A DNA stretch of 56,231 nt, the filler included, from Catajapyx aquilonaris (Eukaryota), in assembly GCA_000934665.2 (NCBI GenBank). It is 2 parts of 2 records of this genome, joined end to end, with 100 filler letters (N's around TTAATTAATTAA, not from the genome) between each part and the next. Parts side by side here need not be neighbours in the genome. Positions count along the whole stretch, not along the records: positions 28,229 to 56,231 come from KZ539259.1; 1 more part is not named here. The stretch is one strand, 5' to 3'. Positions within the stretch are counted from its first letter, which is position 1; the number at the start of each line of letters is the position of its first letter. The notes below the pieces were generated by a model that worked only from the letters and a program-made list of their open reading frames with translations, did not search any database and had not been told where the DNA came from. Made by a program: the position numbers and the translations under genes. Of this stretch, positions 38,755-46,988 are shown one piece after another.

Positions 38755-39612
38755 CAGTGGAGCATCGATTTTCCGAACACCGATCAACCAAACGTTTTCG
38801 GGTCAGCAAAAAAACACGAGCCTCGGCTCCCAAGCAAAATAAATTGACCTTTTTTTCCCCCTAAACTGTAGGACTACTTCATGTAAGGACAGTGAGGTAT
38901 ATGTACAATATTTTTAAGGCGTGCCTCTGACAGAAAATATACAGTTTTGTGGTTAAAGGGACACTCCACTCAAAATACAAGTTGATCTGTAAAAATCAGG
39001 CCAAAAATCCTGATTCCGGTGATACCATCCGTTTATCTCTGAGACGAACGGTAATGTCAGGGGAAGAGACGAAAGTCGGAAAAAAATTCGAGAGTGGCTC
39101 CGCCTGGCCACCTGGCCAAGTTAGGCGACGTTGGATAGAGCGCCGCCCTTCCCAACGGGCACGAGGGGAAGTTGGCTTCGGACACAACCAGATCCCCGCG
39201 TGTCCCCACGGATCCCCATACCCGCAGGCAACTTATCAAAGTCGCCGTTGGGAAGGGTGGCGCTACTATCCACGTCACCCTCAAAGGGTGGCGTCGCCAC
39301 CTGCGCCGGGCGTTTGAGCGCGGTTTTCGAACGACACACTTCCAGCTTTCGCCCTGGCCTTACCGTTCGTCTTTCAGAAAAACTGCTTATACCTTCGGAG
39401 TCAGGATTTTTTGCCCGATTTTTAGAGCCCAACTTGTATTTTGAGTGGAGTGTCCCTTTAATATCACTGTTTCTTAGTTTCATATGGCTCCTATGACACC
39501 GGTACAATTTTTTTCCGTAAATGATCTGTTATCCGAACAATCAGTTATCCGAACAATCAGTTATCCGAACACACCCTTGGCAGACTCTGTTCGGATAATC
39601 GATGCTCCACTG
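38755..39612. mobile_element. pogo/Tigger-like MITE
   Basis: TA|CAGTGGAGCATCGATT...AATCGATGCTCCACTG|TA. Subterminal 16-bp repeats GTTATCCGAACAATCA. Confidence 0.88.
38957..39457. mobile_element. Kolobok-like MITE nested in the Tigger-like MITE
   Basis: TTAA|AGGGACACTCCACTCAAAATACAAGTTG ... CAACTTGTATTTTGAGTGGAGTGTCCCT|TTAA; TIRs of about 100 bp. Confidence 0.88.
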
Positions 39613-39763
39613 TATTTAATTACACAACAATTCAGCATTATCCTGAATGAATAATAACAGCAGTATGTTCATAATCTTCTAGCAAGCGATATGTGACATA
39701 AATATGTGGTATCATTTTCTTAATCAGGAGAATGGGCTTTATGGAGTAAAACTAGTTTTCCTA

Positions 39764-39926
39764 TAGTCCGTTAAACGAGAGAATGATATGACGTCACACC
39801 AGCTGTGTTTTCGGAACATGCGCAGTAGGATGCTTGCAGAGCGATTTTGGGACGTGATAGGAGGGAAGAGCTGGGTGGAGGCAGGGCTGAATGTGACATC
39901 ATATCGTTCTTTCGTTCAACAGACTA
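39764..39926. mobile_element. Small MITE family E, copy 1
   Basis: Imperfect TIRs of about 35 bp (AGTCCGTTAAACGAGAGAATGATATGACGTCACA). Inverted homolog at 46387-46549. Confidence 0.8.
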
Positions 39927-41063
39927 TGTGTCTGGTTTAAAAAATGTCATCTCCTTGAGTAGAAGAAGTTTTTTCAAACAATATGCAATAAAGGAGTGAA
40001 ACCCAGAACCAGGGCTGCAAAACTAAACTAAACCAAAGTGAAAGAACCATATCTCCTGCGTTTCTCGCTAGCATCTGTTCACAGAAAGGATTTCTGGAAC
40101 CGAAATGAAATGCACTAATGAAAATAATGTTGGAACTGAAAGCCAATGAAACAATACTCAGGATTCTCGGAGAGAAATGATTAGAGAATCAAAAGTGATT
40201 TACGTTCCACTGACATGGTTACTGAACTGATTTGGTTTCAGTCCGAGCTTGGACTGATGAACATTTCGTTTCGTTCATCTCGTCATAGCTGTAACCAGCG
40301 TGCTGTTCCATTGCGGCCGAGTTGGGACGTACCTGCAGTGTTGGCTGCCTATGGTGAAGGGGGCCGACTCTCATGCGCGTGTTCTCGCCTTGTTATTTAT
40401 TTCCGTTCTCTTGGCGCACAGTAGGACGAATCCAGAAAATGGCGGACGAAAATCGAATTTTGAATTTTTAGGTATGACCTTGACATTGGCGTACATTACA
40501 CAACAAGGGGTTGGGCCATATGAAACAGGGCCTGTTTATTCTGTACATTTTGCGTGAAGAATGCCCCATGGTCCCAAAGTCACAAGAAAAAGAATGTGTG
40601 AATTGGTGGTCAAAATATGCTTCACTTTGACATTAGCTTGAGGTGGTTAAACACAGCGGGTTAAAATAATTACCTACCTGGCCTGGTAAGATCATTTAAT
40701 AAATAATGGCAAAACACAAAAATTGCCGATTTTAAAATTAGTATTAACCTATAAAATAAAAATTTCCATGACAGCCGTACCTGACATTATTTTTTATGTA
40801 AACACAGTTTTACAAAACGCGCTAATTGCGCCTATGACACGAAAATGGTACCATCTTGATCTACAAACTGTGGTATCAGGCAAAAAAATATTCAGCTGCG
40901 GCACGCCGCAGCTGGTGATTCTATGACAATATTTGTACTGAAAAGTATTTTAAAAAGGAATTTCATTTATCGCTTTGGCTCCTTTTATGATCTGAATTCT
41001 GGAGAAAATTTGCGAAGGAGGGCAATGCATTAAGCTTTTACGCAATTCACTTCTTAAGCATTT

Positions 41064-41379
41064 AATAATATTAATAATAATTTACCCCGTGATAGAGCCA
41101 TTGGCTCCCTTAGAGGGGGAGTTCATCCCAATTTTTTTGTCAGGAACTCTTTGCTTTTTACTTTTTGCTTCGCTTTTTGGGAAGGGATAGGGATGGAAGG
41201 AAGTGGCTGTAGCCTGTTAATTACGGAAACAACTCCGGAATTTTCCTGGAGGGACCGTGGGAAACCACGGAAAACCACGGTAAACCACGGTCAGAGTTGG
41301 CGGTCCCGGGATTTGATCCCCGGACCTCTCGATTAGCAGCCGGATACCATATTTCCTGACCTACTGCTGCTTCGGTAAC
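41064..41379 (-). mobile_element. tRNA-derived SINE, family F, copy 1
   Basis: Homologous to 54122-54403. Central GGAAGGAAGTGGCTGTAGCC...CCTGGAGGGACCGTGGGAAACCACGGAAAA resembles a conserved arthropod SINE domain. TSD TCTTAAG(C/A)ATTT. Confidence 0.85.
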
Positions 41380-41402
41380 TCTTAAGAATTTCCTCCAACG
41401 TG

Positions 41403-41958
41403 AATGCAGTTATTGTTCCTACGCGCGGGGGAAATCCCTCACTGGTAAACTAAACGTGCCATGAAAGACAGATCAGTGGACCCATAATTGTTCCGATTTG
41501 GGCTCTCCGTTCTTCATGCATACATCCGTTTTTTTGAGTGTGTGTTACATATCTCATATCGACTGCCATTGAAGACATGGAAAGTGAGTCAAAAAATGAC
41601 TATCAAAACCTGCTAAGTACAATATTATACAAAATAATTTCTTCTGAATTGCTCGTAGGTTTTCAAAAGTGACAAAAAGAGTTTCGAAGCCCGGAAAAAA
41701 GAAATTCTAAAGAAATTTAGAGATGAAATGGGCCTGATTGTGGATGTGCCAATACCAGGTTATGGCACATCCAACAATGGCAATACAGCCAGGAAGTTTT
41801 TTTCTGATGCCAAAGTAGCATCCGAAATAACTGGTAGGTCTGAATGGGAATGCACTACAGGCAATGCCATTTGCCTCATTGCAAATTTTTCTTACTCAGG
41901 AATAGATGAAGAACTTATTCGAAGATTTGGTGTCATTTTGAAGGCTCTGAACAGCTGA
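41403..41958 (+). pseudogene. Spliced Transib (RAG1-related) transposase fragment, three exons
   Basis: Removing introns 41584-41658 and 41834-41899 gives FRFGLSVLHAYIRFFECVLHISYRLPLKTWK-VFKSDKKSFEARKKEILKKFRDEMGLIVDVPIPGYGTSNNGNTARKFFSDAKVASEITG-IDEELIRRFGVILKALNS. This is colinear with the Transib core as recalled. Upstream stops and a frameshift indicate decay. Confidence 0.9.
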
Positions 41959-43036
41959 CATGCTGATTCTCATTGTACATGTGGGCTCATTGTTTGTGTA
42001 TGAATGAATGTGCACATCATGAAAGTGTCTCATGTGCTTTGTGTTAATCGTAATCAAGGATTCCTGAAACAAGTAAGCCTTTCTGAAACTGATTAACGGG
42101 GTGTTCCACGAGGCCCCTACCAGTTGCGGGTTGCGGTCATAGATTACGCAACTGTGTAAACATGGGAATCGTATGCAAAATACTTCTGGAGAAATTCTAA
42201 TGGCGGTCATCCATACTTCTTACACGCACTTCCAGAAGCTGCAGCGATCCACGCACCTTCACCTTGGCCGTAACTCATCTTGAAATAATATTTCGATGCA
42301 GCCTAGTCTCGTCTCCAGCAGGATGTAGGTAGTCAAATGAGTCCGAGGAGCCCCTCGCACGCATGACAACACTAATGATAATAATATTCCGTACCGCCAA
42401 CAGTCCAGTATGGCCTGTACTCTAGGCCAGAGTTTCTCAAACTGTGGCAAACTGGCAGCACACCATACCTGTGTGCTGCCCCTACACAGGCGGCAGAGCA
42501 CTGGTTTCCATACCCGAAATGAAACCGCTTACCCAGGTTCCGATTTGTTTGGTTCCTGAAACGATTAGCCTTATCTGGCGGAACAAAACGAAAACAGAAC
42601 AAGAAGGAGATTCATTTTGAACTGCCCGTTCAGTTCCTGAGAATCGTTTCGTTTCCTTAACGAAAGAGAACGTGGTCTGGATAATCTCGTTTCCTTTCCG
42701 AACCAAAATGGTATACTAACAGCGTTTGTATTTGTTTCTGTCTGAACAAAACTTCTCTTTCGTTTAGTTTAGTTTTGCAGTCCTGCCCGGAACACAATTT
42801 TGAAACGTCAGTTCTCTGAGTTGTAAATACATTGTAGCCTACTCCCGAATTATCCGGGTGCGGATTATTATCCGTGTATCGCTAAAGCAAAACAAAGCAA
42901 ATCAAAATCCAAAAAATGTCCAATTTTCTCCTCCATCACGATAACTCGTCTGCCCAAATGGCCAACCTAACCATTTAGTTACTGGAGTCCACAGAGGTTA
43001 AACTTGAACTGAAACTTAAAATTAAACTTTAACTTT

Positions 43037-43554: not shown

Positions 43555-43662
43555 GCTAGATTCAGAGTTAAGCCCCCTTTTTAAAAGATTGTTTTAGTTG
43601 TTTTTTGTTATTTTTGGTACCAACGAGGTCGAACTCATTGTACTTGATATTATTGAATTATA

Positions 43663-44225
43663 CAGGGGGTTTCAGAGTTACGGGTCAAGCGCTTGTGAGG
43701 GGGTGGGGAAAAATCGTAGGTGGCGACAACCCCGGTCGGTTTTATAAAACAATTAGAAATGCGGCAGTAATCTATTTATTTATTACGGCCTTGACGTCAC
43801 ATCCTTTCTGTTCGAATTGACTGGTGTGGACTGGCAGATGCAGCATAGGTTGAACGGCTTTTTAGCCTTGCGGGCTGCACTGAAAAAGGTGCTCTCCTCT
43901 ATACCGGTAGGGTACTGTACAAAGTAGTGTACTACTGTACAGTAGTGTGTACAGTACCCTGCCGGTATAGCATGAGAGCGCCTTTTTCAGTGCAACCTGC
44001 AAGGCTAAAAAGCCGTTCAACCAGGTTCAACCCACTAGTGCACGTGCCAGTCTGCGCCAGTCAATTCGAACAGAAAGGATGTGAATTCACGCCGTACGTC
44101 CGTAATAAATAAATTGATTACTGCCGTATTTCTTATTGTTTTATAAAACCGACTGGGGTTGTCGCCACCTACGATTTTTCCCCACCCCCTCGCACGCGCT
44201 TCACCCATGACTCTGAAACACCCTG
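43663..44225. mobile_element. Tc1/mariner-type palindromic MITE immediately downstream of the ACBD5-like stop codon
   Basis: TA|CAGGGGGTTTCAGAG ... CTCTGAAACACCCTG|TA. Arms are complementary over about 270 bp. Confidence 0.92.
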
Positions 44226-44854
44226 TACAAGGCATTTTGTAACAAGACTGGGAAACTTTGGGGATGAATTTTTGGTCTGGTATGTCTTCATCACTGTTAG
44301 ATGTGTGTCCCAGCAAGGCATTGTGTTGGCAGCACCAGCTTAGCATGGTGGATTCATCTTAGGGTTCCATGCAGTTAAGTTGGCTAGCTAGAATTTTAAT
44401 GAGGTACCATGTCAAGTTATACATTTACCACCACAAAGCTGAAGTGAGACATGTGTAATTGAATTTTTACCATGCAGTGTTGCATACTCTGGTAGGATTC
44501 CAACTTGTACAGCTTGCCTGCAAACTAAGCTATAGATCATGTGCAACCAGCTAGACACTAATTGTTCAGCTGCATTGAGTTTTGTACACTTCTGGAGAAA
44601 AAATTGCCTTGCACCCTGGCAAGCAATGTTAATGGGGATGCAGTTGGAAGTGTGCAGGAATCAACTTGCACTCTGCACACTTCGACCTGGACCCTCATTG
44701 GCCCTGCTTGCTGGGGTACAAGGCAATTTTTTCCAGTAGTGTATGGTATATGGCCATGCTTCACAAGTTGCAAATCTTCCCGTTATTGTACATTACGTGA
44801 TAAAAATCAAGTTAGTGATTGTCAACCGATTGACACTGCTCTGCAATGTTATCC

Positions 44855-46386: not shown

Positions 46387-46549
46387 CAGTCCATTAAATG
46401 AAAGAATGATATGACGTCATGTTCAGCCCCGCCTCCACCTGTCTCTTCCCTCCTATCATGTCCCCAAATCGCTCTGCAAGCATACTACTGTGCATGCTCA
46501 GAAAAGATGGCTGGTGTGACAGCATATCGTTCTCTCGTTTAAAGAACTG
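46387..46549. mobile_element. Small MITE family E, copy 2
   Basis: TA|CAGTCCATTAAATGAAAGAATGATATG ... CATATCGTTCTCTCGTTTAAAGAACTG|TA. Inverted relative to the 39764 copy. Confidence 0.82.
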
Positions 46550-46988
46550 TAGTACCTATCAACTTGAGCAGAGAACCGTCATAGGTTATACACATTCTCT
46601 CAGTTGAGTGACAGGCTATAATTGCAGAATCTCATTGTTGCTATCATAGATATTTCACCAGGAACACTGAAAGTTCCCAATGTACATTTGCTAATTATGC
46701 CTAGGCTAAGCAAATGATATTCTGCATTGTTAAGTTGGATTCCAAATTATCATTCCATCTTAATTGTGATTAATTGATTTACATGTGAACATCTCAGTTC
46801 CATTGGTTTTATCCTTTTCTTCAGCTTTTTAGGAAACAAAGCAACTTCCAGATTATTATATTTTATTTGTAAATGATAAGATTGCAATTTTATTTTTATC
46901 AGGCATGTGATAATGTTAAATCTATTTCAATTCACTCAATTTTATGGGTAGTTTGTAAGGGACATTACACCATTGGTGCTGACACTTA

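Follow-up and report, generated by a model that had tools for sequence, protein, structure and literature searches.

The stretch of DNA analysed here (the window; 56,231 nucleotides from Catajapyx aquilonaris, GCA_000934665.2) contains a short piece of transposase-like coding sequence that appears to be interrupted by two spliceosomal introns. The locus raises the questions of (i) which transposase family the piece belongs to, (ii) whether the copy is still part of a gene, of a transposon or of the host, or only the remnant of one, and (iii) whether the two interrupting segments are introns that the copy has in common with its relatives. Based on sequence comparisons, we consider 41455-41964 to be most probably (probability of roughly 0.85) an inert relic of a Transib transposase gene from an intron-bearing lineage.

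Reading frames were read from stop to stop over 40800-42600, and the 56-kb window was searched for Transib homology. Solid homology to Transib transposases (tblastn) was found over about 500 bases at 41455-41964 on the plus strand. It starts with the remnant of exon 1 (41455-41583, +; residues 416-458 of the relative P0001, FGLSVLHAYIRFFECVLHISYRL...KTWK), which is supported by tblastn, a match in the PDB and an HMM match, carries FGLSVLHAYIRFFECVLHISYRLPLKTWK in its frame up to 41583 and ends at intron site 1. Intron 1 (41584-41658, +; 75 nt, phase 0, AAA/GTGAGT...CTCGTAG/G) has a GC content of 0.29 and contains in-frame stops. The middle exon (41659-41833, +; P0001 residues 459-517, RKKEILKKFRDEMGLIVDVP...NNGNTARKFF...EITG), whose frame up to 41833 reads VFKSDKKSFEARKKEILKKFRDEMGLIVDVPIPGYGTSNNGNTARKFFSDAKVASEITG, is followed by intron 2 (41834-41899, +; 66 nt, phase 1, CTG/GTAGGT...TTACTCAG/G), which ends in CAG, is open in frame and splits the Gly codon of ITG. 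The start of the next exon (41900-41964, +; IDEELIRRFGVILKALNS) includes an in-frame TGA at 41956-41958, and the homology ends at about 41964. When 41488-41583, 41659-41833 and 41900-41955 are joined, 109 codons with zero stops are obtained, in which the motifs FGLSVLH, ECVLHISYRL, GLIVD and NNGNTARKFF are present and in which splicing creates ITG/IDEELIRRF. Both donors agree with the splice consensus beyond the GT (GTGAGT and GTAGGT), and each AG has a pyrimidine-rich stretch before it. Since the lengths of intron 1 and intron 2 are both multiples of three, a single tblastn alignment spans the whole fragment, and since intron 2 is open in frame, the ORF 41659-41958 continues through it.

The two GT-AG introns of 75 and 66 nt and the motifs that the earlier note had listed are all found at the positions given there, and its remark that intron 2 is in frame while intron 1 breaks the ORF holds, intron 1 having in-frame stops. 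The span that it proposed, 41403-41958, stands only in part: the homology begins at 41455 and runs to about 41964, whereas extension of the 5' end to 41403 gave no significant match. The interval 41403-41454 (+) may be a decayed continuation of exon 1, as it contains in another frame a CxxC that could match the invariant CYIC of the family, but this likeness is weak and the interval was not counted as part of the fragment.

The affiliation of the fragment was determined by comparison with proteins of known structure and with a set of relatives. In a phmmer search against all PDB chains the sole match was the Helicoverpa zea Transib (HzTransib; 6pqn), overall over residues 250-358, with exon 1 corresponding to residues 250-281 (E 4.9e-7) and the 99-aa ORF of exons 2 and 3 to residues 290-340 and 338-358 (E 4.6e-11); no match to RAG1 or RAG1L was found in the PDB at E <= 10. 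The fragment shares the FGLS.LHA, EC.LHI.YRL, GNTAR.FF and LIRRF motifs with HzTransib and spans about a quarter of that protein. The two segments are absent from HzTransib, and the 6pqn chain continues straight across both intron places in the phmmer alignment. A large protein collection was searched for longer proteins, which yielded 16 relatives of 188-725 aa, and for each of the 16 the only credible tblastn match in the window was 41455-41964 (E 1e-40 to 5e-17), all of their other matches in the 56 kb having E >= 0.39. The alignments of eight of these 16 relatives were inspected, and in all eight a gap of 24-25 residues falls on the first segment and one of 22 residues on the second; neither segment is present in any of the ten relatives that were aligned. 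Aligned without gaps, the spliced 109 aa are identical at 79 of 109 positions (72%) to each of the full-length relatives P0001 and P0002, at 69/107 and 71/109 positions, respectively, to two related metagenomic loci (L049 and L026).

The profile of the relatives matched HzTransib 6pqn over the full length with an E-value of 6e-185 (619 bits), amphioxus RAG1L (6b40) with an E-value of 3.8e-11 (45 bits) and RAG1, over the C-terminal region of the catalytic Glu, with E-values of 1e-6 to 5e-9. As the profile is far stronger against HzTransib than against RAG1L or RAG1, the fragment is, judged by these scores, Transib proper and not a RAG1-like gene, which agrees with the earlier identification of the peptide as Transib core. 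By PDB and profile scores the fragment is not closer to RAG1 or RAG1L than to Transib. The equivalence previously drawn between GNTARKFF and RAG1 was recovered only by way of amphioxus RAG1L, in that the profile alignment pairs GNtARrFF with GNYARELF of 6b40; GNFARKL is presumably the mouse RAG1 motif that is the counterpart of GNTARKF. Pfam scans returned zero families for the fragment (two of two pieces) and weak RAG1 (PF12940) matches for three of eight relatives, with only that of P0010 above the cut-off, and PF26100, the precomputed label of the relatives, was not recovered in the scan of these proteins.

With about 120 of some 680 codons (P0001 residues ~416-537 of 684), the fragment starts after the second Asp (D387 of P0001, in MVDGK) and ends before the Glu region (~591-595, with SEEAQE). 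In the alignment of the relatives D282 is nearly invariant and D387 invariant. The conserved DG..., MVDGK and SEEAQE motifs of the family, which we take to hold the catalytic triad, are present in the alignment of the relatives, whereas the window copy is without the residues aligned to them, and none of the three catalytic residues is in the fragment because of this truncation. Two nonsense codons fall within the homologous sequence: the in-frame TAA at 41485-41487 stands where relatives have Glu or another residue, with homology on both sides, and the in-frame TGA at 41956-41958 stands where relatives have Lys or Gly, P0002 and P0004 aligning through it. Transib ends (RSS-like CAC heptamer) were sought between 33 and 50 kb of the window; none of the 25 heptamer pairs found had ends matching at 18 or more of 30 positions, and none had a 5-bp flank match at <= 1 mismatch that would indicate a 5-bp target-site duplication. 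Missing ends are expected for a truncated relic and are uninformative on its parent.

The copy number was assessed with contigs of three DNA runs (X1-X3) of one sample, probably that of the assembly, which were mapped at 80% likeness as evidence of presence only. The depth of the relic (~20-70 per contig) is like that of the unique flanks, and no further copies of the Transib piece were seen in this sample at 80% likeness, only two forms of one locus; the relic is about single-copy. This fits the statement in the text of Kapitonov and Koonin (PMC4411706) that autonomous Transibs typically occur in one or a few copies. Considering its reading frames and extent, the copy is a dead, truncated fragment and an ordinary genomic fossil.

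The relic is enclosed by a 2776-bp unit (40010-42785) with 33-nt inverted ends (CAGGGCTGC...), the left one at 40010-40042 (+; CAGGGCTGCAAAAC..., preceded by CCCAGAAC) and the right one at 42753-42785 (-; 30/33 complementary to the left end and followed by CCCGGAAC). These ends are unique in the window and had 0 matches in 100 shuffles. The 8-bp direct repeat that flanks them (CCCAGAAC / CCCGGAAC, 7/8 alike) belongs to the enclosing unit and is the only flanking duplication found. Hallmarks of hAT elements are target duplications of 8 bp and short inverted ends with CAG or TAG at the start. Both are found here, and the unit, for which neither a hAT transposase nor a second copy was seen, looks like a candidate non-autonomous hAT-type element.

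The relic could accordingly owe its position to this element, and it is possible, if on balance rather unlikely, that the Transib piece was picked up and moved by it and was never whole at this locus. The inverted ends and the direct repeat are as such a capture would have them, no Transib ends are found nearby, and the depth in the bins to the right of the relic (41959-42568) is raised and patchy, as for a low-copy repeat family, with the relic itself at unique depth. However, a nested insertion followed by deletion fits equally well, only one copy of the unit was seen, the ends of the unit lie outside the stretch covered by the contig mapping, and capture would bear on how the relic arrived rather than on its identity. 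As a relic of a Transib transposase gene, the fragment would in either case be a passenger in the 2.8-kb unit, a Transib having inserted there and been mostly deleted or a piece of one having been captured.

The surroundings of the relic contain further repeats. A SINE-like repeat of very high copy number adjoins it at 41044-41409 and would have landed beside the relic later. Summed over contigs, its depth is 1e4 to 3.6e5, and it contains, at 41254-41290, a 10-bp ACCACGG-type triple repeat. The contigs of run X5 cover only this repeat, in which ARAGORN detected no tRNA, and Rfam gave nothing at E <= 1 over 40900-42700. In one X2 contig the SINE-like repeat is missing, with 40 other letters between 41038 and 41377, so that this insertion may be polymorphic. 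Three long inverted-repeat pairs were observed at 43658-43788 / 44100-44230 (131 nt, 92%), 38953-39076 / 39338-39461 (124 nt, 80%) and 39761-39925 / 46388-46552 (165 nt, 84%), and they probably represent further small transposons or copies of repeats in opposite orientation.

The three exons could, as a second alternative, belong to an expressed host gene that arose by domestication of a Transib transposase. The earlier note had held this to be the less likely option, and we consider it very improbable. Several properties of the fragment are those expected of a sequence in use: there is no frameshift in 327 nt, the identity to intact relatives is as high as 72%, and both splice-site pairs, with their GT and AG, are intact. 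Moreover, the six differences between a variant contig and the window over 41732-41955 (at 41837-41887) are all in intron 2, with 0 in the 158 adjoining exon bases, and another contig has one further difference, also in intron 2 (41866). For the six the probability calculated post hoc is (66/224)^6, about 6.5e-4, and this clustering could hint at constraint on the exons. These points are outweighed by the condition of the locus. The TAA lies inside the homologous coding part, the bases between it and the conserved motif contain neither an ATG nor an AG acceptor, the TGA stands where relatives read on, and no catalytic residue is covered. tblastn with the 16 relatives found no Transib coding sequence elsewhere in the 56 kb (41 kb upstream and 14 kb downstream), and no Pfam family was detected in any of the 33 ORFs of at least 110 aa in the window. 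Exon 1 is itself variable (Leu to Ile at 41545). Furthermore, the locus has a second form, seen in contigs of X1, X2 and X3 at the depth of a single haplotype, in which 6 nt take the place of 77 nt (41655-41731) that comprise the end of intron 1 and 73 bases at the start of the middle exon, and this net loss of 71 bases argues against any use of the exons. The truncation, the two nonsense codons, the missing catalytic residues and the deletion form thus all disfavour domestication.

To determine whether the two intron sites are conserved, 77 related loci were taken from metagenome contigs, which are short (the intron-bearing contigs are 1.3 kb long). The three exon blocks were located in these loci by small HMMs built from the alignment of the relatives, and an interruption of 40 nt or more was scored as an insert. 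Site 1 was scoreable in 57 loci; 50 are free of an insert there (-8 to +6 nt), and the other seven have inserts of 55-279 nt. In four of the 57 (L026, L030, L031 and L049; three distinct) the insert has GT-AG ends and agrees exactly with intron 1 of the window in site and phase: 62 nt in L049 (aaa/GTAAGT...TTTTTAG), 55 nt in L026 (aag/GTAATT...ACAAG) and 82 nt in the near-identical pair L030/L031 (aaa/GTAGGT...TAAAG). Of the 50 loci scoreable at site 2, 47 are free of an insert (-7 to +14 nt), and the other three have inserts of 61-139 nt, all of them at the identical site and phase (L032, L033 and L049; two distinct), namely 61 nt in L049 (cag/GTTGGA...TATAG) and 139 nt in L032/L033 (ctg/GTGATT...AAAAG), which are identical to each other in the tree. 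The introns of the relatives differ from those of the window in length and sequence while site and phase are the same. Those of L049 (62 and 61 nt) shift the frame, and the exons of L049, L026 and L030 are stop-free only when spliced.

Conservation of the intron positions between copies, which the earlier note had put forward as a check, was thus found at both sites, and we take the two segments as real, position-conserved introns of a putative intron-bearing Transib clade. The earlier attribution to an intron-bearing Transib lineage is upheld by these positions, to which the state of the copy as a dead fragment, absent from that attribution, has to be added. A counterpoint is that introns are the minority state, as no insert is present in 50/57 loci at site 1 and in 47/50 at site 2. 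It is hardly credible that the segments are instead chance in-frame insertions, or places of deletion in the relatives, that happen to start with GT and end with AG, since, although 75 and 66 are multiples of three and segment 2 is open in frame, removal at these boundaries gives an alignment that is free of gaps and exact to the codon, the donors follow the consensus and pyrimidine-rich stretches precede the AGs, and unrelated GT-AG segments (55, 62 and 82 nt; 61 and 139 nt) occupy the same sites in independent relatives, of which those of 55, 61, 62 and 82 nt are not multiples of three and leave the exons open only after removal.

Other interruptions were observed in the related loci. The two closest intron-bearing relatives have a third short intron right after MVDGK (L049, 528-580; L026, 272-336), and L030 is interrupted additionally at another place, near residue 429 of P0001. 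GT-AG inserts near, but not at, site 1 were found in L027 (682-747; seven codons upstream, phase 2), in L038 (2741-2833; 4 nt downstream, phase 1) and in L029 (about 1164-1439; about four codons downstream), and these were not counted as the site-1 intron. L027 and L038 are sister sequences, yet their insert sites differ. Because of such inserts the region may gain introns repeatedly, as opposed to having kept one old intron.

The origin of intron 1 was examined in a tree of nine proteins and 44 rows from the window and the loci (53 rows in total), 33 loci having been left out because their exon hits were weak or missing. The window sequence falls into a clade with L026, L049, P0001, P0002 and P0003 (SH-aLRT 95). 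The free tree requires two changes for the site-1 intron, and constraining the five rows with this intron to one clade costs 0.56 log-likelihood units (AU p 0.48), so that a single old gain and several gains would both be possible.

With the relic read as the remains of an intron-bearing Transib gene, host splicing would have removed at least three introns from the pre-mRNA of the live parent, located after MVDGK (not kept here), after WK and inside the Gly of ITG. The spliced product would be a RAG1-like DDE transposase of about 680 aa, judging by L049 and L026. The copy would then keep codons of about 416-537 together with two of the introns, but not the catalytic residues, the DNA-binding front or the Transib ends. 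As the introns are still present, copying would have proceeded at the DNA level and not via mRNA. Among DNA transposons, the P element and Minos (Tc1/mariner) depend on splicing by the host for their transposase mRNA; in the DNA comparison made here no sign of regulated or tissue-specific splicing was found.

Autonomous Transibs are described in the text of Kapitonov and Jurka (2005; PMC1131882) as elements of 3-4 kb that encode a ~700-aa transposase and generate 5-bp duplications, and exon/intron prediction was made there on Transib consensus sequences. According to the same text the Transib1_SP transposase of the sea urchin has two exons, so that intron-bearing Transib genes are not new. Compared by this two-exon description, the present case differs in having at least three sites, which are common to arthropod-associated and metagenome copies. 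No description of these particular intron sites was found in the running text of the Transib literature consulted (PMC1131882, PMC4411706 and bioRxiv 10.64898/2026.08.26.747230). For RAG1 and RAG1L (ProtoRAG; 6b40, 3jbw and others), which are distant homologues, the text of PMC1131882 gives an intron of the teleost RAG1 at Gly460, which is elsewhere than the Transib sites. As the Transib sites do not coincide with this RAG1 intron (PMC1131882, as far as its text describes it), they would have no bearing on the origin of V(D)J recombination.

A more far-reaching proposal would be that an arthropod-associated Transib clade has kept at least three introns across genomes, that the linker after LHISYR is a hot spot of intron gain (-7 codons, 0, +4 nt and about +4 codons) and that residual constraint on the exons lies behind the intron-2 variants. 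We consider this combination improbable. If it were true, the activity of the clade would depend on host splicing and might be limited to certain tissues, as in the P element.

The locus itself carries little weight, being dead, truncated and about single-copy, with no sign of use. The small new point would be that, among the closest transposon kin of RAG1, one Transib subgroup appears to have introns at fixed codons (after MVDGK, after WK and inside the Gly of ITG). Such genes would be split or missed by ORF-based annotation, and the intron sites may serve as simple markers to trace the subgroup and to tell DNA-level copies from retrocopies.
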